A DNA stretch of 60,153 nucleotides, filler included. It is 8 parts of 8 records of this genome, joined end to end, with 100 filler letters (N's around TTAATTAATTAA, not from the genome) between each part and the next. Parts side by side here need not be neighbours in the genome. Positions count along the whole stretch, not along the records: positions 48,148 to 54,099 come from SRR31147125_52837; 7 more parts are not named here. The stretch is one strand, 5' to 3'. Position 1 is the first letter of the stretch, and the number at the start of each line of letters is the position of its first letter. The notes under the pieces are model-generated. The model had not been told where the DNA came from. It saw only the letters and a list, made by a program, of their open reading frames with translations, and ran no database searches. Position numbers and translations under genes: made by a program. Below, piece after piece: positions 9,227 through 60,153 of this stretch.

Positions 9227-10028
9227 ATGGTGGGCCGAATTCTAATTGAAAAACTCGATAAAAAATACACCAATCGCCGTAAAGTACCTCGCAGCGACGA
9301 TAATCCCTTGCAGCATCAAGGTGGTATGGTCACCGTGTTGATGGATATCAATTTGGATATTCCGGACGGTGAAATGGTATGTTTCCTGGAGTCCGTCGGG
9401 CTGTGGGAAATCAACACTACTTAGAATCATCGCCGGTTTCGAGACGCCTACCGATGGCGATGTCCGAATCAATGGTAAACCGGTTGATGGACCTTCGGCA
9501 GATCACATCTTTGTCTTTCAGCATAGCGGTTTGTTTCCCTGGATGACTGTTGCCGAGAATGTCGGATTAGGACTGCGCCATAAAAAAGACCTGGATGAAA
9601 GACGCCAACAGATCAAAGAATTCATCGAAATGGTTGAACTGGAAGGGTTTGAGCAGTACTACCCCAGGCAACTGTCCGGCGGCATGCAGCGACGGGCCGA
9701 ACTGGCTCGTGCCCTTGCCGTCAACCCCGATATCATGATCATGGATGAACCGTTCAGTGGGTTGGATTTTCTTACCCACATGAAGATGCGTGAAGAAGTG
9801 GTCAACATGCATACGTTCATTCAGAAGACCATTTTACTGGTTACCCATAATATTGATGATGCGTTGATCATGGGGGATCGAATCGTTATCCTGGGAGGCA
9901 GTCCCACGGGTGTGATGATGGATCGGTCCCTGAAATTTCCCCGTCCCCGTGATTTTGAGAAATCCCCTGAGTTGAGCCGGCTAAGAAGCGAACTCTTCCT
10001 CATGATGGGGGTTAACTATGCGGTATAG
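9227..10028 (+). CDS. ABC transporter ATP-binding subunit, SsuB/TauB type (1-nt insertion just before Walker A)
   Basis: Removing one A at ~9390 gives FLGPSGCGKST; also YPRQLSGGMQRR, MDEPF and VTH. Confidence 0.9.
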
Positions 10029-14445: not shown

Positions 14446-14545
14446 NNNNNNNNNNNNNNNNNNNNNNNNNNNNNNNNNNNNNNNNNNNNTTAATTAATTA
14501 ANNNNNNNNNNNNNNNNNNNNNNNNNNNNNNNNNNNNNNNNNNNN
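14446..14545. other. Artificial contig spacer 2
   Basis: N44-TTAATTAATTAA-N44. Confidence 0.98.
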
Positions 14546-20446: not shown

Positions 20447-20546
20447 NNNNNNNNNNNNNNNNNNNNNNNNNNNNNNNNNNNNNNNNNNNNTTAATTAATT
20501 AANNNNNNNNNNNNNNNNNNNNNNNNNNNNNNNNNNNNNNNNNNNN
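20447..20546. other. Artificial contig spacer 3
   Basis: N44-TTAATTAATTAA-N44. Confidence 0.98.
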
Positions 20547-22849: not shown

Positions 22850-25773
22850 TCAGAATAGCAACAGCAGCGGCCCCAGACCCAACCATCCAACCCCATCTAC
22901 GCCCACCATCTGACAGCCGCAGGATTCGGAGCCGGCAGAATCCCCACTCGAATCAACATCAGAATCGGCATCACTATCAGAATCAGAGTCAGTATCTGAG
23001 TCAGTATCTGAATCCCCATCGGAATCACTATCCGAGCCAGTATCGCTGTCGGTGTCTGTGTCTGTGTCTGTATCCGTGTCTGTGTCTGTATCCGTGTCTG
23101 TGTCCGCCGTTCCAGCGCAAACCCCACCGGAAATGCAAGCATCGTCAATGGTCCCAGCGTTTCCATCGTCACACTCGGTTCCCACTGGCAGGTTGGTCCA
23201 ATCCGTCTCGTCGATACCGGGAACACACTGCTGGCAAGACTCGACAGGATTCAATTCGCCGGAGTCGTATTCCACTGTGGCAATGGTGCACGTGTCGAGG
23301 GAAATCTGCCGAGCCCGCGCCCGATACGAACCCCCGTGGTATTTGGAGTAAAGAGCAATGTAGCTATCCCCGTCGGAAGCGAGGTCGAGATCACTGATCG
23401 AATAGTCATCAACATCAACGGGAAAACCACCGTAGTCTAAAATTTGCCCGTTCACTCCCCAGACTCGAGAGGCCTTCAGATCGAACCATTGATAAAAGGA
23501 CGGAGCCCCAACATCGCTCCATCCCACCATAAAGTCGACACCGTCAGAAGCGACCGAACAACCACCAACTTCTTTTGTTCCGTCCGTGAGTGGATCACCA
23601 TCTACGGTTCCTACTGCACCCGTCAGGCCATCAATCAATGTGCCGTACAAGCCGACAGGATTTTGACCGCCGTTTCGCCTGTCGAGCCAAGCGACATAGT
23701 AGTCCTTTCCGTTTGACGCGGCAGATGCATAGGATTGTTCACCAACAACAGTACAAATCGCAACGTCAGAGGAATCCAGAGCCGCTCCGGTTGTAGCATC
23801 GTAACGCCTGGAGAAGAGGTCATAATCAAAACCTCCAAATTCCCCCCATACCAGTAAGAAGTTGTCGCCGTTGGATGCGAGAGAGCGGGAAACTGTAGAG
23901 GCACTTCCTCCGGCGCCCAATGATGAAAAAGAGGAGGGATAAGAAGCCACACCTGTTATGGGGTCAACAAGAGCTCCCCGCAAATTTCCGCTGGAGAGAT
24001 CGGACCAGATCACCATGTAGCTGTCGTCACTTCCTGATACGCGATACCCGGTTGAAGAAGGTACTGTCGGCAAAGGCATGGCACCGCTGATGGAAATCGG
24101 CGTCGTATCGATCAACGTTCCAGTCGCTCCGTCAAATCTGATTCCCCAAACCTCGCAGGTGGAGGCCGGCGGGGCAGAGCTAAAACAATCGTCGTAAACG
24201 AAAAGAACATCACCTCCGCTTGAAGCCAAAGCAGCTTTTGCGTACCCCTCCGCAAACAGTAAACCCGCTGGATCCAGCACGTCCATTCCCGTAGGAGTTT
24301 CTTCCAAGCGAACCCCATACAAGTCGCCCTCACCGGGGACAGTTGCATCTCGTGTATCTTCCCAGGCAGCAAAGTACATGGCGGATCCATAAACGATTGA
24401 TGGTTCAAACTGGTTGTTGTTGCCCGGACTACCGACCTGAATAGGACTCGCATCCAAATGAATGCCGGTACCGGACTCCACCCTGGTGCCCCACAATCTG
24501 AACAATCCGCTTGGGTGTTCCTCGGCAGAAAAAAAGATGTAGTCGGTCCCATTGGAAGAAACCGATGTATCCATCCACCAACTGGCACCGGAAATTGGAG
24601 CTGGGCTTCCTGAAAGAATTAAACCCGTCTGGGCGTCGATTTCCATCCAAACCCTATCCAGATTCGGAAACACGGCGGGAGACTGTAGTAGGAAATGAAC
24701 AAAGTAGTCTGTGCCGTTTGAGGCCATTCGAATATTCCAGACATCTTCAGCTCCTGTCCAAAAGGCCAAGCCCACCGGATTTGAGAGGGTACCATCTGAA
24801 GGCTCTATGAATGTTCCATAGATATCGTTGGAAGTAGTACTTCTGTTGTCCATCCACAACACAAGGTAGTTAGTGCCGTTAGATGCCAAGGAGGGCTTGT
24901 AATGTATGCTAGTGGGATGAGTGCAGACTTCAATTCCTGCACTGTCGAGCACAGTTCCCGTGTTGCCCTCTACCCTAACCGCTATAAGATCAGCGTTGGA
25001 TACCCACAAAGCCAGGTAGTCCTGACCATCGCTTGCAAGCTGGACTTCATAGTCCAAAACGACATTGGAATTGAGCAGAAACCCATTGGGATCAACAACC
25101 GCTCCCATATCTCCGTTCACTCTAGCACCGAACACGTCCAGCTCAGAAGTCGATGAGTTCCTTGCATCCACCCAAGCTACGAAAAAATTACTCCCGTTGG
25201 AAGCAACTGCAGTGGACCTCCAATACGTGCGATATCTAAAGTCAAAAGTATTGATGTCCTGGGGCGCGTCACTAATCAAAATAGGAGTGCTATCGAGCAC
25301 CGTTCCCGAGGAGCTGACACGCCTACCGAGTACTCGCATTGATTGAGTTGAAGTTGATGGGATGTTTTCGAACTGCTGCCAAACAACCAAATATCTTGTG
25401 CCATCAAAAGCAACCGATGGATTGGGCGCCATCATCCCGTCAGGTGTTGTGCAATCAGCTACCTGAATCGCATAAGGGTCCAACACCACACCAGATGAAG
25501 ATATCCTGACTGCTTCAATACGACACCCACTTTTATAACTGGAAGGATGAGACAGAGCTGTATCTGCCCACACCAGCAAGTAGTCAGTCCCGTCCGAAGC
25601 TATGGCGGGATTCAGCTGTGCTATTCCCCCGTGTCCGGAACCGGAGTATCCATTCCAAATTCAGCCCCTACAGATGGGATCGTGGCAGCGGAGGCTTTGT
25701 TTCCCAAGGAGCAGATCAGACAGGCAACGAAAACGCAGAATACGGAAACAGTGAAGCTATATGGTCTCGACAT
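22850..25773 (-). CDS. Large surface protein: signal peptide, 14 propeller-type repeats, Cys-rich domain, DT/DS stalk, CGC plus hydrophobic C-terminal sorting signal
   Basis: ATG 25773 gives a signal peptide (…NKASA-AT) that joins ORF 22850-25579 on adding one G at run 25626-25630; ASxGxxYxxxW repeats; SCGC...GWLGLG tail. Confidence 0.8.
22945..23105 (-). repeat. Coding 6-nt-period repeat (Asp-Thr / Asp-Ser dipeptides)
   Basis: TGTGTC/TGTATC/CGTGTC and ATCAGA-type hexamers on the plus strand encode DTDTDT...DSDSDS. Confidence 0.9.
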
Positions 25774-27237: not shown

Positions 27238-27337
27238 NNNNNNNNNNNNNNNNNNNNNNNNNNNNNNNNNNNNNNNNNNNNTTAATTAATTAANNNNNNN
27301 NNNNNNNNNNNNNNNNNNNNNNNNNNNNNNNNNNNNN
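27238..27337. other. Artificial contig spacer 4
   Basis: N44-TTAATTAATTAA-N44. Confidence 0.98.
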
Positions 27338-33717: not shown

Positions 33718-33994
33718 GAAACGCTACCTGTTCGACAATCCACGCAATGTCAAGGCGGTACTGTACCTGCTCTATGCAAGCTGCGGCCTGCTGCTCCTCA
33801 TCGATTTCATGATTCATCGGCACATTACCCATCACTGGGAAAAGCTGCTCGGCTTCTACTGCATATACGGGTTCATCGGCTGCAGCGGTATCGTGATCGG
33901 GTCGAAGTGGCTGCGGGCATTGGTGGAGCGTGAGGAAGACTATTATACGAAAGATGAATTGACCCAGCCGGAGGAGCGCCATGTGGAGCAGTAA
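33707..33994 (+). CDS. Small 2-TM protein inside the mrp operon
   Basis: ATG 33707 MADEKRYLFDNPRNVK; two TM segments, GFYCIYGF, REEDYY; overlaps both neighbours. Confidence 0.78.
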   Translation: MADEKRYLFDNPRNVKAVLYLLYASCGLLLLIDFMIHRHITHHWEKLLGFYCIYGFIGCSGIVIGSKWLRALVEREEDYYTKDELTQPEERHVEQ

Positions 33995-35684
33995 CATTCC
34001 GGCCTTTGTCCCGTTTTTCCTGGCTGCCGGGCTGGCTGCGGTGACCCGGGGCCGGACCCGTTCGACCCTGATGCTCATGATCGTCGCGCTGAGCGGCCTG
34101 CATCTCTGGTTTCTTGAAGGCGATGTCCTGGTGCGAATGGCGTTTCTGGACTATGAGCTTGCGCCGTACCGGGTGGACGGCTTAAGCGTTGTATTCGGCT
34201 ACGTGTTCCACATCGCGGCCTTTATTTCGATTCTTTTTTCGCTGCACGTAAAAGATACGACCCAGCACGTGGCCGGTTTGCTCTATGCGGGCTCTGCACT
34301 CGGAGCGTTGTTTGCCGGCGACCTGCTGAGCTTGTTCGTTTTCTGGGAATTGCTCGCCGTAACCTCGGCGTTTCTCGTCTGGGCGCAGCGCAGCGAGCGG
34401 GCGTACCAGTCGGGCATGCGCTACCTCATCATTCAGGTGCTGTCGGGTGTCATCCTGCTCGCCGGTCTGCTGATGCACCTGGAGGATACCGGTTCTCTCG
34501 AGTTCACCTATATCGGCATCGACTCCGTGGCGGGCTGGCTGATCCTGGTGGCGTTCGGCATCAAGGCGGCCTTTCCGCTGCTCCATACCTGGCTCACCGA
34601 TGCGTACCCGGAAGCCACTCCGACCGGGACCGTGTTCCTCAGCGCATTTACGACGAAGACCGCGATCTATATGCTGGCCCGGGGCTATCCAGGAACCGAG
34701 CTGCTCATCTATATCGGGGCGGTAATGGCCACCTTCCCGATCTTCTACGCGGTGATTCAGAACGACCTGAGGAGGGTGCTCTCCTACAGTCTGATCAATC
34801 AGCTCGGCTTCATGGTGTGCGGCATCGGCATCGGCACCGCGCTGGCGATAAACGGGGCAGTGGCCCACGCGTTCGTGCACATCATCTACAAGAGCCTGCT
34901 CTTCATGTCGATGGGGGCGGTGCTCTACATGACCGGAAAGATCAAGGCAACCGATATCGGCGGCCTGTACAAGACGATGCCGATAACCGCGATCCTCTGT
35001 ATTATCGGTGCGGCTTCTATCTCCGCGTTTCCGTTGTTCAGCGGCTTCGTCGCGAAATCGATGATCATGGCAGCCGCCCTCAAAGAGGGGCACCAGGCCA
35101 TCTGGCTGGTATTGCTGCTCGCATCGGCAGGTGTGCTGAAGCATGCAGGCATCCAGATTCCCTATTTCGCCTTTTTCGCCCACGATTCGGGTATCAGGAC
35201 ATCGGAACCGCCGAAGAACATGATGCTTGCGATGATGATCGCTGCCGCGCTCTGTCTGGCAATCGGTATATACCCGGACATGCTGTACCGGCTGCTGCCG
35301 TTTGCAACCGATTTCACCGCCTACGACCTGAGTCACGTGGTCACCCAGATGCAGTTGCTGTTCTTCGCAATGCTGGCATTTGTGTGGCTCAATCTGCAGG
35401 GTGTATACCCGCCCGAAAAAGTGGCGATCAACCTCGACGGGGAGTGGTTCTACCGTCGTTTCCTGCGTCGCGTCGTCGGGCTCTTCGGCCGCTGGATCAG
35501 AGGGACGGACGGCTCCCTGCGCTCCAAGGTCGAACGGAAGATCAGCCAGCTGGGCGGCTATCTGGCGCAGCGCCACTATCCCACCGGGAAGGGGGCGGTG
35601 ATCCGGCCAACGGGCAACATGGTCATGTATATCGCAATCCTGCTTGCCGCATACCTGTGGCTGCTGCTCAGTTTCCCCCACTGA
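33981..35684 (+). CDS. MrpA/MrpD-like proton-conducting membrane subunit (third paralog)
   Basis: GDLLSLFVFWE, LHTWLTDAYPEATPTG, NDLRRVLSYS, AFPLFSGFVAKSM. Confidence 0.88.
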   Translation: MWSSNIPAFVPFFLAAGLAAVTRGRTRSTLMLMIVALSGLHLWFLEGDVLVRMAFLDYELAPYRVDGLSVVFGYVFHIAAFISILFSLHVKDTTQHVAGLLYAGSALGALFAGDLLSLFVFWELLAVTSAFLVWAQRSERAYQSGMRYLIIQVLSGVILLAGLLMHLEDTGSLEFTYIGIDSVAGWLILVAFGIKAAFPLLHTWLTDAYPEATPTGTVFLSAFTTKTAIYMLARGYPGTELLIYIGAVMATFPIFYAVIQNDLRRVLSYSLINQLGFMVCGIGIGTALAINGAVAHAFVHIIYKSLLFMSMGAVLYMTGKIKATDIGGLYKTMPITAILCIIGAASISAFPLFSGFVAKSMIMAAALKEGHQAIWLVLLLASAGVLKHAGIQIPYFAFFAHDSGIRTSEPPKNMMLAMMIAAALCLAIGIYPDMLYRLLPFATDFTAYDLSHVVTQMQLLFFAMLAFVWLNLQGVYPPEKVAINLDGEWFYRRFLRRVVGLFGRWIRGTDGSLRSKVERKISQLGGYLAQRHYPTGKGAVIRPTGNMVMYIAILLAAYLWLLLSFPH

Positions 35685-41411: not shown

Positions 41412-41511
41412 NNNNNNNNNNNNNNNNNNNNNNNNNNNNNNNNNNNNNNNNNNNNTTAATTAATTAANNNNNNNNNNNNNNNNNNNNNNNNNNNNNNNNN
41501 NNNNNNNNNNN
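41412..41511. other. Artificial contig spacer 5
   Basis: N44-TTAATTAATTAA-N44. Confidence 0.98.
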
Positions 41512-42908: not shown

Positions 42909-45900
42909 ATGAATCATTATAAGCAAATCAGACAGATTGAAAAATTATTGGATCGGGTGATGTGCTCTGATCGTCCCGGTGTGATCAGAGAGCTCAAGCA
43001 GGTCAAAAAAATCTCCGGCTGGAGCAAAAAAAAGAGATAAGCTCGGTATCCAAAGGGCAAAAAAGGTCTTCTACAGCAACTCAAACTCTCCAGAGAATTG
43101 AAAGGGTGTTAAAACGAGTTGACGCTTCTGTTCAAAGATCGGCAGAGCGTCGGGCATCTATGCCTAAGATCTCTTTGATACCGGAATTGCCCATTACGGA
43201 TAAAAAAGATGAGATCGTCGAGGCCATCAAAGCCAATAGAGTCGTGATCATCTCCGGGGAGACCGGTTCCGGAAAGACGACGCAGATCCCCAAGTTTTGC
43301 ATGGCCGCCGGAAAAGGGGTCAATGGGACCATTGGATGTACCCAGCCCAGAAGAATTGCCGCCATGAACGTCTCTGCCAGAATCGCCGAAGAGCTGGCAG
43401 AGCCCCTGGGGCAATCCGTTGGATACAAAATTCGGTTTGACGATCGGGCGGCACAAAATTCCATTGTCAAGGTGATGACAGACGGTATTTTGCTTGCTGA
43501 AACCCAAAAAGACGGCTGGCTCAATGAGTACGATACCCTCATCGTTGACGAGGCCCATGAGCGGAGCCTCAACATCGATTTCATCCTGGGAATTCTCAGG
43601 GATCTGATTCAAAAACGCCGGGATCTTACTCTGGTGATCACTTCCGCTACTATCGATACGGAGAAGTTTTCCAAAGCCTTTGACAATGCTCCGGTCATCG
43701 AAGTGTCCGGCCGTATGTATCCGGTGGAGGTGCGGTATATGCCGGTCCATGGGCATGATGATCCGGAACAGGATGATCAGGGCTATGTAGAGGCGGCTTG
43801 TGACGCCGTGGAGATGATCCAGCGGGAGTCCCGCAGCGGCGATATTCTCATTTTCATGCCCACGGAGCAGGATATTACCGAGGCCATCGAAATTCTTCGG
43901 GGGAGACGGTATGTGGGCGTCTCGGTACTTCCCCTCTATGCCCGTCTTTCTGCAGGGGAGCAGAGCAAGATTTTCCACCGGGGGCCGGGACGGAAAATCA
44001 TCGTCTCCACCAATGTGGCGGAAACCTCATTGACCATTCCCGGGATTAAATATGTGGTGGATACCGGTTTTGCCAGAATTCCCCATTACTCCCCCCGAAC
44101 CCGCACGACGGCACTCCCCGTCACCCCCATTTCCAGAAGTAGTGCCGATCAGAGAAAGGGGCGGTGTGGGCGTGTGGCCAACGGCATCTGTATTCGTCTC
44201 TACGATGAGGATGATTTTGCTTCCCGTCCGCTATTTACCTCTCCGGAAATTTTGCGCAGTAACCTGGCTGAGGTTATATTGCGGATGATCTCCCTTAGAT
44301 TGGGAGATGTGGCTGCCTTTCCATTCATTGATGCGCCGGCTCCCAAATCAATTAAAGATGGATTTGATACGTTGCTGGAACTTGGGGCCATTGTCGTTCA
44401 AAAGAATAAGCGAAAGGAGTTTGGAAAAGCGAATCAAAGGACTCGGCAAAAGAATATGCAAGGGGACCTGTCAAAAGAGACCCAGGGAGAATTGCCAATA
44501 GATTCCCAAAGGGATCGGAAAAAAGAGAAAAAAGAAGGCAAGCGCTACGTCCTTACGGAAAAAGGCCGGGTCATGGCCGGTATTCCCGTAGATCCCAAGC
44601 TCTCCAGAATCCTCATCGAGGCGGATGAGCGAGGTTGCCTTGACGAGGCCGTCATCATTGCATCGGCCCTCTCCATTTCCGATCCGCGGCAGCGCCCCCA
44701 GGATAAAACCCAGCAGGCGGATCAAAAACATGCGCTGTTCAAAGATCCGGCATCGGATTTCATTTCTCTTCTCAATGTCTGGAACGCCTATCATGAGGCC
44801 CAGCAACGCTTGAAAAGCCGAAGCAAAGTGAGAAAATTCTGCAACGACCATTTTTTATCCTTTAAACGGCTTCGGGAGTGGAGCGATATTCATCGACAGA
44901 TTCTCTCCGTTCTGAGGGAGCATGGGATCAAAGGAAAGAAAAAAATCTCCATCGCTTCCGGTACCAAGGGGCTCAAAGCCAAAGCGTTTGATATTGGGGG
45001 CCATTTTTATACCGAGCTTCATAAGTCGCTGTTGAGCGGATATCTTGGCAATATCGGACACAAAAAAGAGAAGAATCTCTATCATGCCGCCAAAGGGCAA
45101 AAGGCGATGATCTTTCCCGGATCCGGTCTTTTCAATAATGCCGGGAACTGGATCGTGGCTGCCGAATATGTGGAGACCTCTCAGCTTTTTGCCAGAACGG
45201 TGGCCACCATCGATCCGGGATGGTTGGAAGAGCTGGGAAGGGATCTTTGCACATTCACTTGGTCATCCCCCCATTGGGAGAAAAAGAGGGGGAGGTGGTG
45301 GCGTCGGAGCAGATCTCTTTGTTCGGGCTTATTATCGTGCCGGAACGTTCCGTGGCTTACGGAAAGATCAATCCTTCCGAAGCCGGGGAGATATTTATCC
45401 GAAGTGCTTTGGTCGAGGGGGAGGTGATGCGCCCTTTTCCATTTATGCAGCATAATCACGCATTGATGGAGGAACTTCGGCAACTGGAAGAGAAGACCCG
45501 GAAGCGGGATATTCTGGTGATGGAAGAGGATATCTTTCTCTTTTATCAGAACCGGTTGGATCGGGATTTCTTCAATATCCGCACCTTTGCCAAATTTTTG
45601 AAAGACAAGCGGGACGACGCTTTTCTACGGATGACCCTGGAAGATCTTCAGCAAAAGCCCGTGGATGAGGTGGATCTCAGCGGTTTTCCCGATGCCCTTT
45701 GTATGGGGGCGCTGGAGTTCGGGCTGGAGTACGGGTTTGAACCGGGAGCGGAAAAAGACGGTATCACGTTGAAAGTACCGGTACCGGCGGCTGCATCAGT
45801 GGATCCCCAGGCCCTGGAGTGGCTGGTTCCGGGGCTATTCAAGGAAAAGGTGACGGCGCTCATCAAGAATCTTCCCAAATCCCATCGGGTGAAGCTGCTG

Positions 45901-48047: not shown

Positions 48048-48147
48048 NNNNNNNNNNNNNNNNNNNNNNNNNNNNNNNNNNNNNNNNNNNNTTAATTAAT
48101 TAANNNNNNNNNNNNNNNNNNNNNNNNNNNNNNNNNNNNNNNNNNNN
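48048..48147. other. Artificial contig spacer 6
   Basis: N44-TTAATTAATTAA-N44. Confidence 0.98.
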
Positions 48148-48180
48148 GGTGCATGAGTGGCAGTGACGTGTGGCCGACTT

Positions 48181-48251
48181 CCCCCCACCCCCACCCCCAC
48201 CCCCACCCTTCTCTCTCAACCTTCTCCGCCCACACACACACACACACACAC
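48181..48251. repeat. Microsatellites (CCCCCA)4 and (CA)10
   Basis: Read directly at 48181-48208 and 48231-48251. Confidence 0.9.
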
Positions 48252-48417
48252 CACCTCTTCACTCTCAACTACACTGCCTACACACCCATAGCTGCTGCTG
48301 AAAGGACGCGAGAGGGGAAAGGAAGGAAGGACAGACACAATTCCTTTTCCTCCTGCTGCCTTCCTTGTCACAGGGAACGTGGAGAATACGTGGCAGATGA
48401 GATCCATCTGTACAGAA

Positions 48418-51400
48418 TCACTTCCATGCCGTTCGGGGACTACAACAGTGTGAAAGGGGTACAGGACGATGAACGCCGGCCTCTCCACTATGACTCCACG
48501 TCCAACACAAGGGCTTTGCACAATAGTATCGTTCACCTTTGGGACATTGGAGACACACCTGATGAAGGCAACACACCGTCGTCAGAGTCGTCCGTTGTCG
48601 TCGTCGTCGTCACACATCACACTCTTTCACGTACACGCTCCGCTAGTTCCCCACATTTGCATCGCATGGAAGATTTCACTGGAACACCATGTCTTGGAGA
48701 CCCACGAGGGTCACGTGGAGACGGTACTTGGAAGACAGCATTCAAACGATCCGACACCTGTTGTTGTTGCTGTTGTTGCTGAACACCATGAGGAGCATGG
48801 GGTTGCAGACTCGTATCCACTTCAAGGGGGGCAATGCCCAGTCGTTCACTTTGAATGGAAGGATGTTGAGGAATCCGTCGCCCTCGTATAGATCCAACTA
48901 CGAGGAGCGATCAGGGGCGGCCGAACGAGAAGGGGCAGAAAGGAAAGACACCCAGACCCAGAACGCACCAACATCCATACTCTCATCTTCACCCAAAGAA
49001 GAAAAGGATCTTGTGCGTGTTGTGGTGAATCCCATGGGGGTGCGAGGTTCCCAAACGGGTGCATCGCGTAATGGATTTAACGTAGTTAACCGAGTTAAGC
49101 TGCGTTCCAGTTTGGGATGATGGGTCTTTCGTCGACGATCGCGAAGTGTAGTCTTTGTGGGAACCACGGGGGCATCTCCTCGAGAAGCTGGCTTGGGTGC
49201 TGCTGCTGCTGCACGAGAAGTTCGACGACCGTGCCAAATCGTTAGAATGACAAGGAATCCAAGAAACACCGTCAGACCCATAAGAATCAACACACTCTCG
49301 TAATCCTACAAACACACCAATCAGGACACACACACGCACAGACAAACACGTACGCGACCCAAAAGTCTTCCCGTAGCATGCAAGGATGCGCCTTGCGTAA
49401 AACCCGTAGATCCGTCGGGAGCCTCAACCATTGTTGCAACCATCGCTGGAAACGTAAAGTTGAACATGTAGCTAACTCGGCGGGTTTCCACAGGACTGAG
49501 CCAACACGGATCATCTGCAAGCCATGCCCGAACAAGACACTCAACATGAGTGATACGAGTGCAACACAGAGGCGTGAGATACAAGCGAGCTTGCCATATC
49601 CGGTGAGCATCTCCCAATCCAGGCAGGAGAACAGGTTCAACCCATCGTTCCTCACTGTTTCGCTCCAATACAACAATCTCTGCTGTTGAAGAACTGCAAT
49701 TCATCGAGGAATACAAGTTCGCAGAGCCTTCCAACGGATTCCGAAACGCAACATCAAGCAGACGCCAGAGATATGTTCCCGCGTACATGGGTGACTGAAT
49801 CCATTCCGTGGGTGTTAAATCAAACATAAGACCGGGCTCAGGTTTCCCAGCACAAGGACCAGAGGGACCGGAACACGTAACAGCCTGCTCATGCACCTTA
49901 CCCCACGGGGACCAACAATCGGAGTCATGTGCAACAGATGCATGAAGAACACATGCAACAGGTGCTGTCATAGCATCCCGATCATCCGCATAGAACTCGG
50001 CAGGGAAAAACCCCTCCACCAGAAAGTCAAAGTAGTGAGCGGCAAGTCCTTCCAGTTCAGTGACCTGAGACGCACTGTCCACAATACGAGTCTCCACCCC
50101 TCGTCTGTGGTTGGTTCACAGTCAAGAGTTGCAGTGAACGTTCCAGAAACGAATCCACCATTCCGAATCTGGGATCGTACCCAGCGGAAAAGATGGCGAT
50201 CCTCAAGAGGCCGAGGAGAGGTGTCGGTCTTATTGCTGAACCAAGGACCAAGGACAACATCCAGCGGATTCTCCATGTCTGCCAACGCCTCTTGTGGTTC
50301 TGTACGCCAAAATTCAGCTGGAAGGACCAAGAACGGCTCGGCTAGGGGAGAAATCACCAGGGGCAAACAATCGACAACCGGTCGGTCAAGATCAAAGGAC
50401 AAGGGAGCACTCTTTCCCAGGGAAGACCAGCATGGATGCTCTTCCAGAGAAATCATCACAAGCGCCGTACACAAAACACGAGACGGGACCGTTCGAGGCC
50501 AACTGGACAGGATCAGCGTTGTGGTGATTGTCTCTCCGTTAGCTGTTTTCTCAACGGCAAGTATAGTGTGCGAGGGTGTAGCCGTCACCATATACTCGTC
50601 TTCAGGGTCCTCTTGACACGTTAGGGATACATCAACACGGACATCTTCGGTGATGAGAGGTTCACAGATAACACGAACGTGCACCTCCACTTGACTTTCG
50701 AACAACGCAGTAGTCTCATAGTCTTCCGTGATCGTCCAGTTCCCAATGGTTAGAACATTCGTGGAGGCAGGTACAGGATTCGGTACGACGCTCCACCCCA
50801 AGTATCCCCCGTACAAAAAGGCCTCCTCAAGATAATCGGGAACAGGAGGGCACAGCGTCACAGGAGGTTCAAGAAGTACCAGATCCGTGTACGCCTTCCC
50901 AATGGTGGACCAACACGTATCGAGAGGATCAATCCACACAGACAACGAACATTCAACAGTAGGTCGTCGGATAAGGGATGGCTCGGCCTGAATCGTCCAC
51001 CGTGCCTCACAGGAACTCGCAGCAGTAAGGGTACACACAGTGTTGTTAGATCGCGGAGGATCCGAAAAGAAAATGGCACCAGCTGAACACGTCAAACTGG
51101 CATGAAATGTTCCCGTCGAACCTCCACCATTGTGGAGCACAGCAACAAACTCCGATTCCACCACAACAGCAACTCGAACGGCAGTGGAAGCCCACACCCA
51201 CTCGTCCACTCCCGTGGAAAACGGATCTAGGAGGGAGTGCAGGACTTGAGAATCAGCTTCCCAATCCGAGGGTGGAAGAACGAGAAGGGGCTCAGCATAC
51301 ACGTTCGTTGTGGGAGAACACTGCCCCGTTGGAAGGGACAGAGTGGTATCCGTTGTCAATTCTTTGCCCAGGGACGACCAGCACACATCGCCCTCTACCC

Positions 51401-54099
51401 ACACAAGTACCGTACAATTCTCAGGGGATCGTTCTGCTGCAGCCCACGCAGCTGTCGCAAACAGCTCCACAGAACAATTCATACCAGCTCCAAGGGAACA
51501 GGACACAGAATCAATGGGAAGAACCACGGGAACGGCATGGGGACCACACGACAAGCGTGCCACAAAACGACCCGGTCGAAGGCCACCATTCATCAGCGTT
51601 ACCATGACAGCCGTCTTCATGATCCAATTGTCACGCGAAGAACGCTCCACAAAGGACCATTCATCTTGACGAATTGAGAAGAGATCCTCTGCAGAAGGTG
51701 GGTCATTCGTTCCGTTCCACGTTTCAAAGTCGAACCACACCAGAGGTTCCAACTCAGGCTGCGAAAGGAAGCATTCAAGGGTGGGAAGTGCCACCTCCAC
51801 GTGTTGCGAGACTTCTTTCCCCAACGGAGACCAGCACGTTCCATTCCTGTCTACCTTGATGGATACAGAGCAAGATCCCGGAGCTCGATCCTCGCGGCTG
51901 GATGGTGTGAAAAGGGCAAGGATCAATTCAAGCTCGTCACCCCAACCCTCCACAGGAGAGTGCCCTGTTACTACAGTACTATTTGCTATCGTCACACCAC
52001 CACTACACACAACCTGATAAGCAAGCGATGCAGCAACGGATCCATTGTTGACAGCAACGATGTGGAGGTAGTTCCACATCATCCAGCCGCCTTGATCTCT
52101 CCCCTCGTAGCGGAGTGACCAGTTATCTTCTATCAGGGACAGCCGAAGCGGGTTTAGCACACCCTCCAAAGCAGAAGAAGGAGCCAACTCCCATGCCTCA
52201 GCGTTCACCACAAGAAACGGTTCCTCACTGTAGTTGAAGGGGCGACATCGTGATGCAGGTGCAAGTATGAATTCGTTCTCGATTCGCTTTCCGAGAGACG
52301 ACCAGCACGGTTCGATGGTAACATTGACTTGAAAATGGCACGTTTCCTCACGCAAATCCAGAGAGGAGGGACCAGGAGGCCGTACAACGACAACAAATAC
52401 CATATCACACACTTCTCCCGATCTCAGGTCACAGGTTGGATGGACGTGTTCTACGTCCTGCGAACCACAGGAAAGGGAACTCTGAAATGTCCCCAATCCG
52501 TTGCCTCCGTTTACAATCCGTGCGGTAATATTCGCAATCCATGCATCCCTCTCGTCCTCCCAGGCCCAAGAAGCAACCAGAACTGAAAAAGTTGTCGTCA
52601 CATTATCAGAATTCTCTTGCCACTGAGATGCAGACACTTGCAGGAAGGCCTCGGAAGAATACTCTTGAATAGGTGGGCACGTCCCTGTTGGAAGATCTAG
52701 AACGATCCATTGGGAGACGTCCTTTCCCAGGGTGGACCAGCATTCCTCTCGAATCACATCGACAAGCAGTTGACACGACACCGCAGACCTTGGTTCTGAA
52801 TCCCAAACACTCAACAGGGTCATCTCAGCCGTTACTGTTGCATTTCCGGATACTTGCCACTCGTTGTTGTCCCATCCTCTTACGATGATGGAATTGTTCA
52901 CGTTGTTACATGTCACATTCACACGAAGGGTAGCATTCCCAGCGCCTGCATTGCGAATTTGTGTCGTGAGATTACAGGTATGCGTTCGTTCCTCTCCATC
53001 CTCGTAGAGAGGATACCACGTTCCCACACGAATAAGAAGGGGATCGGTTACATTCTCCAAGGCTGATTCACCCCTGGCCTGCCACATCTCCCATGGAAGA
53101 ACCAGGAACGCTTCGGCCTCATAGTTTGGTGATGAGGGGCAGGAACCCCATGGGAGGAAGACTGACACACTCACATTCGCACTCTTTCCCAGGGAGGACC
53201 AACACGCCTGACCCGTAATCCATGTACTCAGGACACAGAAAGCATCGGATCGGTGCGTCAGAGACCCCATGCATCCCAGATCCCAAACTACGGTACAATT
53301 CGCCTCAGCGTTCAGAGCACAGACCGTGCTTGTTCCATTCTCCACAGTTAGACCACTCTCCTCAGGGCACAAGAGTGAAGCAAAGAACATCCCATCCGCC
53401 GTACCACCGTTGATCATGGTTGCTGTAAGGCTAGCCGTCATTTGTTCCTCGGGCTGCTCCGGTTCCACGGGGAACCATGTACTCTGGACAACATGGAACG
53501 GATCTTCGAGGCTGTCCAGAAGGTGAATGTTCTCAGCCCAGACATCCAGGGATTCCTGCAGACATGCCTCTTCGGAATTGCCAAATGTTGGAGAGCAGAT
53601 ACTTTGGGGAAGAACAACAAGGAAGGTGGTGGTGTGGGTTTTGCCAAGAGTAGACCAACATGCCTCCCGTTCGATAGAGACACTCAACGAGCAGACAGCG
53701 TCGGGTCGTAATGACGGGGACCATAGGGCATACAGGGTCCATACCACAGTGAAGTTCGATCCACCTGAGAGAGAACGGTCCGCGACACTTGTTGTGTTGT
53801 CGATTGTCAAGTTCCCTAGGCCCGAGCAGATGACACCCATGTTGAATACACCAGCCACCGCGCCACCGTTTGTCACGGTCGCAACCAGACTCCCATTCAT
53901 TCTCCAGCCAACAGAATCCACGTAAGATGACAGGGTCCAGTGGCTCTGAACAACACGGAATGGGTTGGTGTGTTCATCCAACAAGTGAGGGTCTTGCAAC
54001 CATATATCTGACGGTTCCTGAATGTACGCCTCATTTTCATACGTATACGTTGGAGAACATTCGCTCTGAGGAAGGCTTACACTCACATTCGTTGTGTGA
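48418..54099 (-). CDS. Eukaryotic spliced gene (5'-partial, >1800 aa): tandem Cys-rich Ig-like repeats, TM helix, polyQ, B-box-like zinc finger
   Basis: Exons 54099-49354 (1-nt indel at 50097-50100), 49305-48969, 48897-48635 and 48558-48418 join in frame across three GT-AG introns. Confidence 0.85.
48559..48634 (-). other. Spliceosomal intron 3 (76 nt, phase 0)
   Basis: GTACGT...CTGAC...ATCAG; removal joins CKCGELAER to VCLQC and completes the zinc finger. Confidence 0.85.
48898..48968 (-). other. Spliceosomal intron 2 (71 nt, phase 1)
   Basis: GTGCGT...pyrimidine-rich...CTGAT...CGTAG; joins ORF 48898-49293 to the frame of ORF 48617-48820. Confidence 0.8.
49306..49353 (-). other. Spliceosomal intron 1 (48 nt, phase 0)
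   Basis: GTACGT...CTGAT...TGTAG; contains an in-frame TGA; removal gives GRLLGR|DYESVLILMG. Confidence 0.85.
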
Positions 54100-54199
54100 N
54101 NNNNNNNNNNNNNNNNNNNNNNNNNNNNNNNNNNNNNNNNNNNTTAATTAATTAANNNNNNNNNNNNNNNNNNNNNNNNNNNNNNNNNNNNNNNNNNNN
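54100..54199. other. Artificial contig spacer 7
   Basis: N44-TTAATTAATTAA-N44. Confidence 0.98.
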
Positions 54200-54261: not shown

Positions 54262-55638
54262 GTGAGAACATTAATCCTCTATCTGATCCTCATTTCATTA
54301 ACGCCAATCTGCGGATTCGCCGGCGCTGAAGCGTATTCCGAAAATTTTGATCAAATGGCCATTCCTTTTAATCAAATCGATTCCGAGCGTCAAATAATTT
54401 CATTTTCTTCGCACAACCAATGCAGCATTACCCCGACGCTGATCATCCCCGAGTCCGACCGAAAAAAACAAGCCTCGTTATTTTCATTGGCAATGCACTC
54501 GGATTGGGTCGTGGTCATGAACGAAAAGGGATGGCAACCCTACACCGGTGAAATTGACCTTTTTGACACGATTCAACTTAACGACACCATACAGCCGTTT
54601 CAGCTGGATTGTACCCCCTTTTCCGGAAACTCCAGTGACAGAATCGATTTTTATTACGGATATGCGGTCCTGCTGCCCTTCTATTTCGGGAATGCCGTCC
54701 GCTTACGTTTGATCGAATCAGAGTCTTTTACAGACGTTGCTCTCACCATTTCCAAACCGGCGCTCTCTTTGGAGACTATCACTGTTTCGTCTCTTCCCAT
54801 CACCACTCTGCCGAAAAATACCGAGAAGATATCCCCTTCCCTAGCTGTCCCCGCCAAAGCGATTGGAACGGAGGCTGATCTGTATGCAGCAGCACTGATC
54901 GGCCGGCAGATCCTGATCAAAACAGTTCAAGGGTGGCGGGTGTTGGAAGAAGATGAGCCGGGGCTTACCCCGTTTGATACCGTTATTCTTTCATCCGAGC
55001 AATCGGGATTTGATTTGGAAACGGAATCACTCAACAACCTCCTTCCAAACGCATGGGCTTATTCGGATGAGACTCTCAACAGCATTTTCTTCTATTATGC
55101 CTACATTTCAAAAACGGACACCCGATTCATGGGAAACATCATCCGTCTGCAACCAACAGGTTCGGATTGCCAAACAAATGAGAGCGTCTCATGGGAACAA
55201 CAGGCCCTTCCCATTGAAAATCTCCAGTTTAACGGTTTTTCGGATATGATGATATCGGATCTATGCCGTGCCCTCTCTCCATCCTTGGTCATCGATCATA
55301 CCCATGTGGGAAAAGACGCCGGTCTTTTCGCCCTAATTGTTTCCGAAGATGGAATACTCGTCAAGACCTCATCGGGCTGGGAGCATTACAAAAACGATGC
55401 ACTTCATCCCTTTTTGACGATCACGCTGCAATCCGAAATCTCCAATTTCGAGATACCGGGCCTATGGCAAGATATCACTCAAGATGACTCGGAGAATCCC
55501 GCTTCGCCTCCCTCATTCAATTGGTATGGGAATCTCATTTTTTATTATGCGTATGCCATCGAACAAGAGACATTGAAAGGAAATGGGTTCAGCCTTCACC
55601 CCTTCTGCCATGAGAGAGAAAAACGCCTGATTCTTTAA
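54262..55638 (+). CDS. Exported protein of three tandem ~130-150-aa repeats, function unknown
   Basis: Signal peptide; three copies of (T/S)PxL-xI...LF...GW...F-xTIxL...FYY(G/A)Y...GN. Confidence 0.75.
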   Translation: MRTLILYLILISLTPICGFAGAEAYSENFDQMAIPFNQIDSERQIISFSSHNQCSITPTLIIPESDRKKQASLFSLAMHSDWVVVMNEKGWQPYTGEIDLFDTIQLNDTIQPFQLDCTPFSGNSSDRIDFYYGYAVLLPFYFGNAVRLRLIESESFTDVALTISKPALSLETITVSSLPITTLPKNTEKISPSLAVPAKAIGTEADLYAAALIGRQILIKTVQGWRVLEEDEPGLTPFDTVILSSEQSGFDLETESLNNLLPNAWAYSDETLNSIFFYYAYISKTDTRFMGNIIRLQPTGSDCQTNESVSWEQQALPIENLQFNGFSDMMISDLCRALSPSLVIDHTHVGKDAGLFALIVSEDGILVKTSSGWEHYKNDALHPFLTITLQSEISNFEIPGLWQDITQDDSENPASPPSFNWYGNLIFYYAYAIEQETLKGNGFSLHPFCHEREKRLIL

Positions 55639-55672: not shown

Positions 55673-58600
55673 TTACTCGGATTTAAAAAATGCCATCACC
55701 TTACACGGCCCTGTAATGGGACCTGTTGTGAAAGTATTACCGCTCAGTGTGCCGTTGCCTCCCAACACCTTGTTGATGACGTATCCGGTATCCGGTGTAA
55801 TGGTAAATGTCAAGGTATCTCCGTGATCGACACTCTGGTCCCCTGAAGGGGCGATCGTGCCGTGGGCCGCCGCAACTCCCGTCACGGTATAGCTCTTTGG
55901 AGTGAAGGTAACCGCCAATGAACAATCCCCGGTGATGGCGCCCGTGGTATAGAGCTCCCCGGACAAACTCCCGGATCCGCCGCAACCGGTAACGCTGTCC
56001 ACCAGATATCCCCAATCCGGCTGAACCGTGAAGGTTGGGGTATCCCCGTAAATTGCCGTTCGGGTCGGCGGCATGACGGTACCGTTTCCCCCGGACACTG
56101 CGGCACTGACGGTATACAAATTCTGGGTAAACACCGCCGTCACTTCGCAATCTGCCGTTACCGCAGCTGTGGTATAGGTATCGCCGGAGAGGGTACCTCC
56201 GCATCCCGTGACGTTGGAGATACTGGAGCCCGATGCCGGGGTTATTGTAAACGTCGCAATCCCTCCGCTAGCTACCGTTTGAGAGGTTGGAGAAACCGAG
56301 CCCCCCCAGACCAGAATTTTGCCGTTCCAATAACAGTCCATTCGGATTTATCAACCCAGGTTGCCCCATTAATTGTCCCTGTTGCGGCACTGCTGCTCCC
56401 GTCAGACAACGTCGTACCACTTCCCTCATTCATAGGGTAATATGCGACCAAACCGCTTTCACTACCGGAAAGCGTCGAATCTTTATTTACAGATATTTGT
56501 GTTGCAGTACGGGCGACATTCCATATCCTGACTTCATCGATGGTGCCGTCAAAATAAACCGTCGCACTTTGATTGAAAAATCTTCCAATATACATCAAAC
56601 TGGTGGAGGGTGCGATATTGATACTCCCACTGTTGTCAAGCACGCCGTCAATATAGAGATATATAGTGAAACCGCTTTTCACCACAGCCACATGAATCCA
56701 GTTTCCTGTATTGACGTAACTTACACTTTCAACAGAATTCCAACTACTTCCATCGTCGATACCGAATTGTAATTTTCCACCCTCTGTACGAAACTGAACA
56801 TTGTCCGTTGGAGTCCCCCCCATTACTCCAAGATACAATATTGTTTTCACTTTTATTTGACGTTGTTTTGATCCATGCCTCGATGGTTATCGTACTGCTG
56901 TAGGAAGGATTGCTGCCGCTAAAATCGACATAGTCATCTGCACCGTCAAATGATAATGCATAATCGGTTCCCGCTGTTCCCTGGGCTGTTGCAAAGGATG
57001 TGGTCAGATAATTTTCAGAGCCCCCCGACCCATTGTATTCATAAACGGCAAAATGGTATGTGGTCCCCGGTGAGAGTCCCGTTACGGTCGCCGAAGAGCC
57101 GGTACCGCTGTACACCACATAATTTCCCGTACCGATCTCCTCTCCGGAACCATAGGCTGCATCAGCGGTATAAGAGGTTAAATCCACCGGAGATGAATCG
57201 ACAGCCCCGCCCTCTTTGATCAGGACAATACGTTTGTTGCCATCTCCCGATGTCCAGTTTATTGTTACCGAGCTTGTATCAATCACTGAAAATATCACAT
57301 TGGATGATGGTATGGTCGGTTCTGCCAAAACAATGGAACCTGTGCTGAATGCATATGTGGCATCCGCCTCGGCAAGTCCGGAATCCAGGTCGATGCTATC
57401 GACCGATTTCTCCAGGATATTGTCGGTATTCGTTGGATAGGTGTTGGTTGCACTCCACGAAGAGGCAGCCCCCAGAGTTTCAAATATGATCCCGCTGTGG
57501 AGAGCGTTGCTGCAGAGCATCCATCACCGCCGCTACACCCTACAATAGGGGCTTTAATGTCCACTCCACTCCCCCAAAGACAGAGAGAATGCCGTCCCGT
57601 ATCAAAAGGGTGTTCCCATCTATAGTCACGTTGCCATTCGTCAAGATGGCATTCCGGGGACTTGCATCGGTAGAGGTCACTCCGTGCTGATCGTAACCTG
57701 TTCCGGCATATCCGGTGATTTGAATGCTACCGTTATTGGCTTTAATATAGGAATTCTGTTCTATGGCAATACCTGCACTGGCAACATTCCAAAAATAAGT
57801 TGTTCCATTGCCCCCGGTACCGTTCATCACAATATTTCCGCTGCCGGCTGTGACGATGGTCTCTTGATTGTCCAATTGAATTCCCCAATTGCTTTCGGTG
57901 GCATTGCTGTTTCCCTTCCCTCGAATGGTAATGTCACCACCGGAACCGGCAGATGGAATGGTACTGTCTGGAGCACCGGAACCGTCATCGGTCCCATCAA
58001 TCATGTTCGTGATGATTACCCCGCCAACATTACCGGATGTCCCTGTGGCAATGGCAGAACCCGATGCCGAACCGTTCCCCCCTCCGATCGTGATATCCCC
58101 CCCGTAGCTTTTCATGGCGGCATTGATGGTGACCTGCCCCCAGGTCGATTCATCTGCCGCAAAAGCCCTGGCTGCCAGAACCATATTGAGCGGAGCCCCG
58201 GAGGCACCGCTGATTGCGCTGTTCAACGTGATGCTCTGTCTTGCCTCAAAAGTCAGCGTGGCCGCCGTTCCACCTGATTTGGTGATGGAAGAATTGATGG
58301 TGATATCCCCATTTTCTCCCCCGCCCCCATTGCCGGTAACTATTTTGACGGATGTTCCCGCATTCAAACGATTCTCTATCTCCGTCACCGAAACGGTGGA
58401 GCTGCCGCTCCCATCCGGAGACCACACATCGGGATCTCCCCCCGACCATGTACCGTTGGTTGAAGAGGCCCCTATTGTGACGTTATAGGCCGCCAGCTGA
58501 GACCACAACGCAAAAAGCGTCAAGTTTGCCGAACCCATCAAAAACGAGTCTCCGGATTGATACGTCGTTCCGCTTCCGTCGGCTGCGGTGTTCCAGCCGT

Positions 58601-60153
58601 CAAAAACATAGCCCGATTTAACAAGCGTTCCGGTATTGCCGAGGACGGTGGCACTATCTCCCGGCGCGTAGCCGGTGCCATCCGAGGGAGGGCTTCCACT
58701 GTCAGCCCCGTTGTCATCATATGTTACCGAATAGAAAATATCAACACCGCCGGAGAGTTGAATCTCAAAGTTGTCTATACCGCCTGTCCGGCTTCCATCA
58801 GCTGAAAAAAAGACATACAATGCACTGGCTCCGGCAATTCCGCTATTGGTCAAGGTCGCCGTATGTTCCGTATGCAGGGCACCAATATTTCCACTTTCAT
58901 CGGATGTTTTGATTCGAAAGGTCATGTCAAAATTGTTTCCGCTTGTGGCTTCAACAATCAACTCAAAATAATACCATGTGGCTGGGGAGTACGTCATGTC
59001 ACCACTTGTCCAGCTCAAACCGGACCCCAGAGAATCGTTGAGCCAGTTACCGCCACCACCATGGAATGAAATTCCGAGAAAATTACCCGAACCAGGCATA
59101 CCATTGGAACCTAAAGCCGAATTGACGGAATCTGTTGAAAACCCCAGAGCCCCATAACCTGCATTGGCTTCCATTTTGAAATAGGCAGAAAGTGTATACA
59201 CTCCCCCGACAGTGACATTATATGACTCTTTTGCCGTCCAAATCTGGTCGGAAGAGGATGTGGATACAAGGATACCGCCTCCCCCTCCCAAACCCGCTGT
59301 CGAATCCCAGACAAAGGCATCGCCTGAACTGTCCGTTCCTTCTGTAAAATCTGTCGAAAGAGAGTCCGAAGATGTAAACTCTTGTAATTTTGATACCGCT
59401 TCCTCCTCCCGATAAATCACATAGAGTTTGTCGGCTTGGGGTGATGGGGAGAGCGTACTCGCTTCATCACTTGTATAGTAAACCTGACTTGAATCGTAAC
59501 CGGACAATCCGGTAACCCCTGTACTGCCTGCAATGCTTCCTGTGTAAAGTTTTGCAATGCCGTTGCTTCCGAATGAGAGTGAACCGCCGCTGACAATCAG
59601 ATCTCCGCCGGTGGAGGTTCCGGCCGATTCACTCTTTCCGGCGTTCATCATAATAGCGCCCGTTGTGGTGTCGGTGGTTGAAACCGCTCCGGTCAGGGTC
59701 AGATCCCCGCTTTGGGTGGCAACTTCGACTTTGCCGGTGGCGCTGACACTGCCCAAGGTCAAAGCATCCGAATTGACAAAAGCGATGCTGCCGGTATCGG
59801 CTGTCAGGTTCGATACCAGATTTCCGGTATTGGTCAGGGAGTATTCCCCGCCCGTTCCCAACAGGCTTACACTCTGCCCGCCCGTGACTGCACCGGACTG
59901 GGTGACGCTGCCCTGGGTGTAGAGCCGCAATGGGTCTTTCAGGGTAACCGCAGAAATCGCAATATCACCGGTCTGAGTGATGCTTCCTACGGTGATGCCG
60001 GAAAAGCCGTCTGTAAAGTTATCGGTAAAATATCCTGTTGAAAGACAAAGCGGGCCGGTCCCTGTTCCCGACGCCCCGATGGCGATCCCCTGCCCCGGTG
60101 TGTTCGGCTGAATCATGAGTTGACCATAGCCACTTAAGCTGAGGGTCGCCCCC
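55673..60153 (-). CDS. Giant mosaic surface protein/adhesin (5'-partial; several homopolymer frameshifts)
   Basis: Co-linear ORFs 57540-60116, 56744-57520, 56272-56850 and 55673-56341: FHA-like G/T/S-rich repeats, InlB-B repeat (GYVFDGWNTAADGSG), FN3 (TGLSPGTTYHFAVYEYN), LamG (ALSFDG, WIHVAVV, FDGTIDEVRIWN), three C-terminal repeats (FTITP..GY....V.GCGG.LSG..YTT..IT.DC). Confidence 0.8.

Follow-up and report, generated by a model that had tools for sequence, protein, structure and literature searches.

Which gene is carried by a stray contig placed among others that look prokaryotic, and what kind of protein would it produce? This question is raised by the window analysed here, a stretch of 60,153 nucleotides (nt) in which eight contigs are joined by linkers of the form N44-TTAATTAATTAA-N44 (at 7637-7736, 14446-14545, 20447-20546, 27238-27337, 41412-41511, 48048-48147, and 54100-54199). 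The gene in question lies on the contig SRR31147125_52837, which occupies window positions 48148-54099 (5,952 nt) and is flanked by N-linkers. An earlier note on this DNA had proposed a new single-pass receptor or adhesin that would signal or couple to ubiquitin through a cytoplasmic B-box. The analysis described here leads to a different answer: the contig probably covers the 3′ portion of a gene of a microbial eukaryote, whose product would be a type I membrane glycoprotein of the HgrB-like family, related to HAP2/GCS1. HgrB is the HAP2-GCS1-related protein B of Dictyostelium discoideum, named mrhA in dictyBase (Okamoto et al. 2016, PMC4910948).

Structure of the gene

On the minus strand, the removal of three GT-AG introns, together with one frame change, leaves 1,828 codons open, with one terminal stop (48418-48420). 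The single frame of more than 1800 amino acids (aa) claimed in the earlier note is therefore recovered with the three introns given there, while the homopolymer indel that was invoked to complete it is one of several options that restore the frame. From the edge of the contig, 1,333 codons are open on the minus strand, in the only frame free of stops in that region. The start codon is absent from the gene model because the 5′ end of the gene runs off the contig (54099). The GC content of the gene is about 50%. As for the last exon, which had been described as absent from the open reading frame (ORF) track, it is seen as a 52-aa ORF (48418-48576) once the minimum ORF length is lowered to 40 aa. 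The elements of the gene, in the order of transcription and all on the minus strand, are as follows (TM, transmembrane; UTR, untranslated region).

50100..54098, minus strand: long exon 1, open at the contig end and without a start, covering modules 1-8 and the initial part of module 9; the sole stop-free frame
50097..50100, minus strand: GGGG run with the frame change, inside module 9
49354..49896, minus strand: degenerate module 10 (end PCWLSPVETR) and membrane-proximal stem; weak profile match
49306..49353, minus strand: intron 1, 48 nt, GTACGT...TTTGTAG; gives an in-frame TGA if retained
48969..49305, minus strand: exon coding for the TM helix (49234-49293), then HGRR as stop-transfer motif, and a tail that is basic and disordered
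48898..48968, minus strand: intron 2, 71 nt, GTGCGT...CTCGTAG; predicted from frame continuity and the common donor motif only
48635..48897, minus strand: exon with disordered tail, Q8 run (48758-48781), and finger residues CKCGELAER (first half)
48559..48634, minus strand: intron 3, 76 nt, GTACGT...TCATCAG; splits the zinc finger, with homology across the join
48469..48661, minus strand: cytoplasmic C6H2 cross-brace zinc-finger motif CKCGELAERV|CLQCPKGERYYCAKPLCWTWSHSGEAGVH, cut by intron 3; predicted from the family alignment and a fold model
48418..48558, minus strand: last exon, including the TGA stop 48418-48420
48148..48417, minus strand: 3′ UTR, presumed from the sequence; (TG)n microsatellite around 48231-48253

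A chain of repeated modules

The ectodomain is made of nine clear Cys-rich modules of about 150 aa (145-172 aa), each ending in CW[ST]x[LIW]GK, followed by a degenerate tenth one. In each of them, a linker part of about 60 aa precedes a beta-sandwich of about 90 aa, which is related to domain III of HAP2 and, in modules 1-8, has the end CWSSLGK. When eight modules are aligned, 12 columns are invariant (four of them Cys and three Trp), and the identity to the reference unit ranges from 22 to 44%. The nine clear modules lie at the following positions.

53640..54098, minus strand: module 1
53184..53639, minus strand: module 2
52722..53183, minus strand: module 3
52287..52721, minus strand: module 4
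51816..52286, minus strand: module 5
51363..51815, minus strand: module 6
50895..51362, minus strand: module 7
50412..50894, minus strand: module 8
49897..50411, minus strand: module 9, which crosses the frame change; profile positions 8-154

A profile was built from modules 1-8, which score 140-187 bits each against it, being the very sequences used to build it. Module 9 was left out of the profile, yet it matches end to end (positions 8-154). The tenth module gives a weak match at model residues 1447-1533 (3.2 bits, conditional E 0.0043).

The ectodomain is also rich in N-x-S/T sequons, as the earlier note had stated: its 1,586 aa contain 30 of them, versus 11.4 ± 2.9 in 500 shuffles (maximum 21). 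The TM helix, VLILMGLTVFLGFLVILTIW, is found at model residues 1587-1606 and is followed by HGRR. After it comes a basic, low-complexity tail of 222 aa with a Q8 run and then the terminal Cys/His motif, so that all the elements earlier described for this end of the protein are present. The tail holds no sequon. The distribution of 30 sequons before the TM helix and none after it therefore fits an outside-in, type I topology. Under this arrangement, the modules would form a long N-glycosylated extracellular stalk held by disulfides, and the invariant Cys pair in the sandwich is probably the conserved disulfide of domain III. From the earlier view of a single-pass receptor or adhesin with a repeat ectodomain, the eukaryotic intron-bearing gene, the single TM pass, and the cytoplasmic finger with eight ligands are thus retained, for a protein that is truncated at the contig end and has no start.

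Relatives retrieved by the module profile

Searches with single sequences gave no relative of the window protein. When the 1,333-aa exon was compared with 5.8 billion proteins by a word-indexed search, none was returned among proteins of 733-2,333 aa, and the comparison of the window exons with Pfam yielded sub-threshold matches only (HAP2-GCS1, E 0.0077; DUF6479, E 0.002; CEBP_ZZ, E 0.018). Because these searches gave nothing, an exhaustive search with the module profile was needed. Among 1.84 billion representative proteins, this profile matches 39 at E≤1e-3, including 19 at E≤1e-10.

The relatives that carry a name are all eukaryotic, and comprise dictyostelid proteins of 900-1,750 aa, a protein from Synstelium, and, in the jakobid Andalucia godoyi, one of 3,314 aa. 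Three of them (P0005, P0006, and P0007), which the profile built only from the window retrieves at E 4.9e-30 to 1.9e-29, bear the accessions that appear under 'HgrB' in Table S2 of Okamoto et al. 2016 (PMC4910948). The D. discoideum protein P0046 aligns to P0003 over its whole length (E 2e-108), and the best-scoring relative is a metagenomic protein, P0001 (E 1.3e-76). In a Pfam scan, 12 of the 39 relatives reach the cut-off of HAP2-GCS1 (PF10699, 27.4 bits) and three more fall below it at E≤0.01; no other Pfam family recurs among the 39. The full-length relatives share with the window protein the appearance of the TM helix soon after the last module.

The architecture, which the earlier note did not recognise, is the same as that of dictyostelid HgrB (mrhA) and of its jakobid and environmental relatives. 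A characterised family with this design, the presence of which that note had considered fatal to novelty, has consequently been found in HgrB. According to these data, the window gene is a distant new member of the HgrB family, and its architecture is not new.

Some of the relatives show particular arrangements. P0023 (the 3,314-aa protein of A. godoyi) and P0037 (3,872 aa) contain a strong HAP2-GCS1 domain (68.6 and 69.4 bits, respectively) over 1,100 residues away from the N-terminus; further modules, a TM helix, and the same finger are found far downstream of this domain. P0010, P0018, and P0019 are compact proteins of about 770-840 aa, with two full extra modules, a TM helix, and an acidic tail without finger; P0010 and P0018 have a HAP2 head that passes the Pfam cut-off, and P0019 has no Pfam match. 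Since the tails of these three proteins are fingerless, the extra domain-III-like modules are not tied to the finger. P0009, from Acytostelium subglobosum (XP_012751820.1), is not the HgrB accession of Table S2 (XP_012756004.1; PMC4910948), and therefore A. subglobosum may contain two genes, or two gene models, of the HgrB-like kind. The gene model of P0009 stops inside the finger. A metagenome scan with a protein query returned a sole locus (L001), which had no match to the module profile and was taken as spurious.

Relationship of the modules to domain III of HAP2

In the relatives that match Pfam, the module's final ~90 positions coincide with positions ~366-452 of HAP2-GCS1, as illustrated by the overlaps in P0015 (17-108 vs 13-119), P0039 (4-80 vs 1-95), and P0017 (221-353 vs 252-359). 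Module 3 of the window protein matches positions 382-437 of the same Pfam model, although weakly (E 0.0077, 15.3 bits). The part of the gene expected to carry most of the HAP2-GCS1 domain is not on the contig. When the module profile is compared with the sequences of the PDB, the sole match is to residues 344-416 of the archaeal Fusexin1 (E 0.043), whose domain III extends from P350 to Q453 (PMC9259645). In this alignment, the second invariant Cys of the module coincides with a Cys of domain III of Fusexin1.

The structure of one module was predicted with AlphaFold2 (AF2), with a predicted local distance difference test (pLDDT) score of 65 and with its N-terminal ~50 residues poorly predicted. 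Among 48,161 chains compared with this model, domain III of Fusexin1 gives a Z of 7.7 (2.8 Å over 89 residues), while the corresponding domains of HAP2 give a Z of 7.2 for Arabidopsis, 6.8 for Plasmodium berghei (D3), and 6.3 for Chlamydomonas. The fold evidence alone is weak, because unrelated beta-sandwiches score alike, and it is the sequence evidence that carries the case. At the level of sequence, these matches relate the predicted beta-sandwich of the module to domain III of the class II fusogens of the HAP2/fusexin type.

The putative cytoplasmic zinc finger

The motif at the end of the tail follows the signature CxCGx6Cx2Cx4-9[YF]Cx4CW.W.HSGx5-9H, as defined in the present analysis, in which six Cys and two His are conserved. 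This finger is found after the TM helix in 10 of the 39 representatives, including Andalucia and four dictyostelids, and also in the D. discoideum protein P0046. In most of the ten, the segment CxCGx6Cx2Cx4-9[YF]Cx4C is followed by W.W.HSG and a further His. A search with the finger profile among longer proteins gave nine matches, all of them within the same family.

For comparison with known families, the finger of the window was represented by its separate exons, its homologues, and a local profile. The Pfam family that matches most often is CEBP_ZZ, in six of 11 family fingers (best E 1.3e-5), followed by ANCHR-like_BBOX in two of 11 (best E 0.0011) and zf-HIT in one of 11, all below their cut-offs; the cut-off of CEBP_ZZ is 29.8 bits, whereas the last exon of the window reaches 15.7 and the finger of P0001 reaches 17.4. 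The family zf-B_box matches one of the 11 (E 0.023), also below cut-off, and does not match the last exon of the window. No sequence in the PDB matches the finger profile with an E better than 0.38.

The finger of P0001 was modelled with AF2 from the family alignment (pLDDT 70.9). In the structural comparison with VIA, its best match among the 48,161 chains is the ZZ domain of CPEB1 (2mke; Z 4.6, 2.8 Å, 55 of 61 residues, 22% identity), followed by the B-boxes of COL2 (Z 4.0) and the B-box of ZFYVE19 (Z 3.2). Other ZZ domains, B1 of PML, B-box1 of TRIM28, Hit1, and RING domains also appear, and just 49 of the 48,161 chains reach Z≥2. In Foldseek, eight of the ten top rows are B-box or TRIM proteins, all at E≥0.12. 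The predicted fold thus gives fair grounds to assign the finger to the B-box/ZZ cross-brace class, with the ZZ domain of CPEB1 as the closest member, and this is the part of the earlier B-box proposal that survives.

B-boxes are usually found with a RING domain and a coiled coil in TRIM proteins, and with a CCT domain in plant BBX proteins. No RING, TRIM, coiled-coil, or other ubiquitin-linked domain has been found by Pfam in the window exons, and the usual partners of B-boxes are also absent from the relatives. A place for the finger within the B-box family is not supported, and nothing points to ubiquitin, so the coupling to ubiquitin previously suggested is not borne out. Such a finger would bind two zinc ions, and would dock or cluster the protein at the cytoplasmic face of the membrane.

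Introns and the frame change

The hexamer GTRCGT occurs at five sites on the minus strand, versus about four expected by composition. Three of these sites are the starts of the introns, one is located inside intron 1, and one is found at 50075. The exons spliced across intron 3 give the spacing CxCGx6Cx2C of the family, and the joined finger of the window scores 43.1 bits, with no gap at the join, against a profile made from ten homologues, the window sequence being left out. Intron 3, as predicted, is confirmed by homology, alone among the three, while predicted introns 1 and 2 are supported by frame continuity and the common GTRCGT donor. These two introns are further backed because the relatives also have the TM helix soon after the last module and because the retention of intron 1 would lead to a stop. 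Within intron 3 there is a GAC-rich run (GACGACGACGACGACAACGGACGAC; 48585-48610, minus strand).

Among the public sequencing runs listed as containing words sampled from the contig, none was an RNA run; one run, which appears to be DNA, contains a quarter of these words. Nine contigs from this run align to the gene contig; they are short, of low depth (2-4x), and show no joints, and the stretches that they leave uncovered are uninformative. One of them crosses intron 1 unspliced, as expected of DNA. Another one ceases to align exactly at 50097, with five letters left over, which may point to a G-run that differs there.

The frame change predicted within module 9 is real, because this module is a single profile match that spans the break. 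Module 9 scores 48.8 bits against the module profile in the full model, and 55.9 bits as an isolated segment with the +1 indel. The score is 54.8 bits when a 23-nt GT-AG segment is removed, 42.8+10.6 bits with a 62-nt intron starting from the GTGCGT at 50075, and 50.1 bits with an 80-nt intron from the same donor. These scores do not separate the +1 indel from the GT-AG alternatives. The indel is slightly preferred here, because with it no strand between the two invariant Cys is lost. The donor-like site GTGCGT at 50075 is the fourth of its kind and lies 22 nt 3′ of the frame change, and either a 62-nt (50014-50075, minus strand) or an 80-nt GT..GAG segment restores the frame. An intron starting at this donor would cut module 9 to the usual ~150 aa, yet it would delete strands of the sandwich.

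Alternative explanations

Several observations weigh against the placement of the window gene in the HgrB-like family. The window protein fails the Pfam HAP2-GCS1 model (15.3 bits against a cut-off of 27.4), with module 3 as its only match, and when the modules are scanned singly, one of the eight matches this model (E 0.016). Its closest relative, P0001, is just 22-23% identical to it. In the structural comparison of the module, unrelated Ig-like and macroglobulin domains score as high as domain III, the top match being VP37 of white spot syndrome virus (Z 8.6), and Foldseek returns no match at E≤1e-3 for the module model. Every match of the finger to known families is below the curated cut-off, and we infer both its zinc binding and its role. 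Furthermore, the gene model is read from DNA only, and the frame change could mean that the locus is a pseudogene.

If the locus were a decaying pseudogene, the frame change at 50097-50100 would be real in the organism and no full-length protein would be made. This would agree with an open frame that demands a frame change inside module 9, and with a contig that is only 2-4x deep in the sole public run holding parts of it and for which no transcript is known. Such decay is nevertheless improbable: both sides of the break stay open (1,333 and 494 codons), and the conserved Cys and Trp, the TM helix, and the finger are all intact, which argues for selection or for a very recent break, while the low coverage and the homopolymer make an assembly error plausible and the GT-AG alternatives likewise restore the frame. 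It is far harder to sustain that the 1,372-aa ORF is a bacterial or archaeal gene for an adhesin or a fusexin-like protein, in which the 'introns' have appeared by chance. The seven other contigs of the window do look prokaryotic, and HAP2-like proteins do occur in archaea (PMC9259645). However, the three introns have the GTRCGT donor in common, with about four such sites expected on the whole strand, the splicing of intron 3 rebuilds a conserved finger without any gap, and that of introns 1 and 2 brings the TM helix and the tail into frame in the same order as in the relatives. In addition, the named relatives are all eukaryotes and the unspliced ORF ends inside module 9. A prokaryotic origin is accordingly considered close to excluded.

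The receptor with a cytoplasmic B-box of the earlier note, for its part, would draw on the best Foldseek rows for the finger, which are the B-boxes of ZFYVE19, TRIM5, TRIM39, and PML, and on the ANCHR-like_BBOX and zf-B_box matches mentioned above. These matches all miss the curated cut-off and E≤1e-3, and a ZZ domain of the CPEB type fits better, both by the number and E of its Pfam matches and as the top match in VIA. With the RING, coiled-coil, and ubiquitin-linked domains not found, and with an architecture that is that of the HAP2-related HgrB family, this reading is regarded as very unlikely. A version of the HgrB-like reading that deserves more credit, while still being less than probable, is that the gene encodes a paralogue without the HAP2 head, consisting only of a signal peptide, domain-III-like modules, a TM helix, and the finger, and unable to fuse membranes by itself; it would then serve in adhesion or recognition or as a spacer, or act as partner to a true HAP2. 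P0001 has a hydrophobic, signal-like N-terminus (residues 6-39), with module 1 starting straight from residue 20, and P0008 and P0011 likewise start with a signal-like segment and have the modules directly after it. From these N-termini it follows that family members without the fusogenic head probably exist, a further point that counts against a simple placement next to HgrB. The window protein, moreover, already has at least ten modules, versus six in HgrB-type proteins. On the other hand, metagenome or bulk assemblies are the source of P0001, P0008, and P0011, whose genes were probably called as single ORFs, which leaves room for exons upstream; the finger-bearing relatives whose models are complete and come from annotated genomes (the dictyostelids and Andalucia) do have a HAP2 head. 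The preferred reading is still that of a type I membrane glycoprotein of the HgrB-like family, encoded by a microbial eukaryote and seen here in its 3′ part.

The other contigs of the window

The other seven contigs show dense, long ORFs with Pfam domains of prokaryotic type, unlike the gene contig. They encode, among others, an NMT1-like binding protein (10018-11061), a subunit of the NADH-quinone oxidoreductase/Mrp antiporter type (33981-35684), a DEAH-type helicase (43106-45427), and a List-Bact repeat protein (57540-60116). No Pfam match at E≤1e-5 was found for the ORFs at 3894-6320 (plus strand, 808 aa), 22850-25579 (minus strand, 909 aa), 54262-55638 (plus strand, 458 aa), and 18731-19924 (plus strand, 397 aa).

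Novelty and significance

Three aspects of this family appear to be new: the interpretation of the HgrB-type ectodomain as domain-III-derived modules arranged in a chain, the finger conserved in the cytoplasmic tail of HgrB-like proteins, and the presence of the HgrB design beyond dictyostelids, in a jakobid and in environmental eukaryotes. No description of the chain of modules or of the finger was found in the open-access literature searched. With respect to distribution, HgrB has been described by Okamoto et al. 2016 (PMC4910948) as limited to dictyostelids.

HAP2 is the most widespread gamete fusogen, and it is still unclear how the cell controls it from within; in a review of the field (PMC8777248), the role of its cytosolic domains is described as 'still under scrutiny'. 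HgrB is the one studied member of this sub-family, and the finger provides a concrete target for mutation in Dictyostelium, where mating assays exist. The case also illustrates that a eukaryotic gene hidden on a stray contig among prokaryotic ones can be placed in a family by means of a profile of its own repeats, where queries with single sequences retrieve nothing.

A broader proposal, which we regard as doubtful, is that the array of domain-III-derived modules and the CW.W.HSG finger are ancestral to the eukaryotic fusion machine of the HAP2 type. They would have been kept in Amoebozoa (HgrB), Discoba (Andalucia), and the lineage of the window gene, and lost from the well-studied HAP2 proteins. 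The finger would cluster or trigger the fusogen, and the headless forms, possibly including the window gene, would constitute a new class derived from HAP2 that acts as a partner of the fusogen.

Comparison with known systems

The closest known system is HgrB itself. This protein has a signal peptide, a HAP2-GCS1 motif at residues 496-556, and a TM helix at residues 1586-1608, and it is needed for type I and type II gametes to fuse in D. discoideum, its knockout abolishing the mating of strains of both types (PMC4910948). The window protein resembles HgrB in its tandem modules ending in CW.x.GK, in the TM helix soon after the last of them, and in a cytoplasmic tail that ends in the same finger, CxCGx6Cx2C...YCx4C. 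By analogy with HgrB, it would act in cell-cell recognition or fusion, probably between gametes. In contrast, it is far diverged, with a best relative that is not a dictyostelid, and it has at least ten modules, whereas HgrB has about six. Its gene, with a GC content near 50% and short introns starting with GTRCGT, also differs from that of HgrB, and while a HAP2-like head is known in HgrB, the window gene is read from its 3′ part only.

Canonical HAP2/GCS1 proteins (PF10699; 5mf1, 5ow3, 7lr3) and Fusexin1 (7p4l) have a domain III that the sandwich predicted for the module resembles in sequence and in fold, and HAP2/GCS1 is also, like the window protein, a single-pass type I protein. Canonical HAP2/GCS1 has one domain III, whereas the window protein has at least ten, each with an added linker part, and domains I and II are not found on the window contig, which holds the 3′ part of the gene only. 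The tails of HAP2 proteins have been described as variable, with Cys-rich polybasic stretches, and the parts of the review that deal with them (PMC8777248) mention no zinc finger, unlike the tail of the window protein, which carries one.

As for the finger, the ZZ domain of CPEB1 (PF16366, 2mke) and the B-boxes (PF00643, PF22586; 2d8v, 2mvw, 7vsp) are, like it, small domains with eight Cys/His ligands, and they are the best matches of its predicted fold. The spacing of the ligands in the window family is different, with an initial CxC and the CW.W.HSG signature. Finally, the finger of this family is located at the C-terminus of the tail of a membrane protein, unlike those of the RNA-binding CPEB, the TRIM ligases, and the plant BBX factors.

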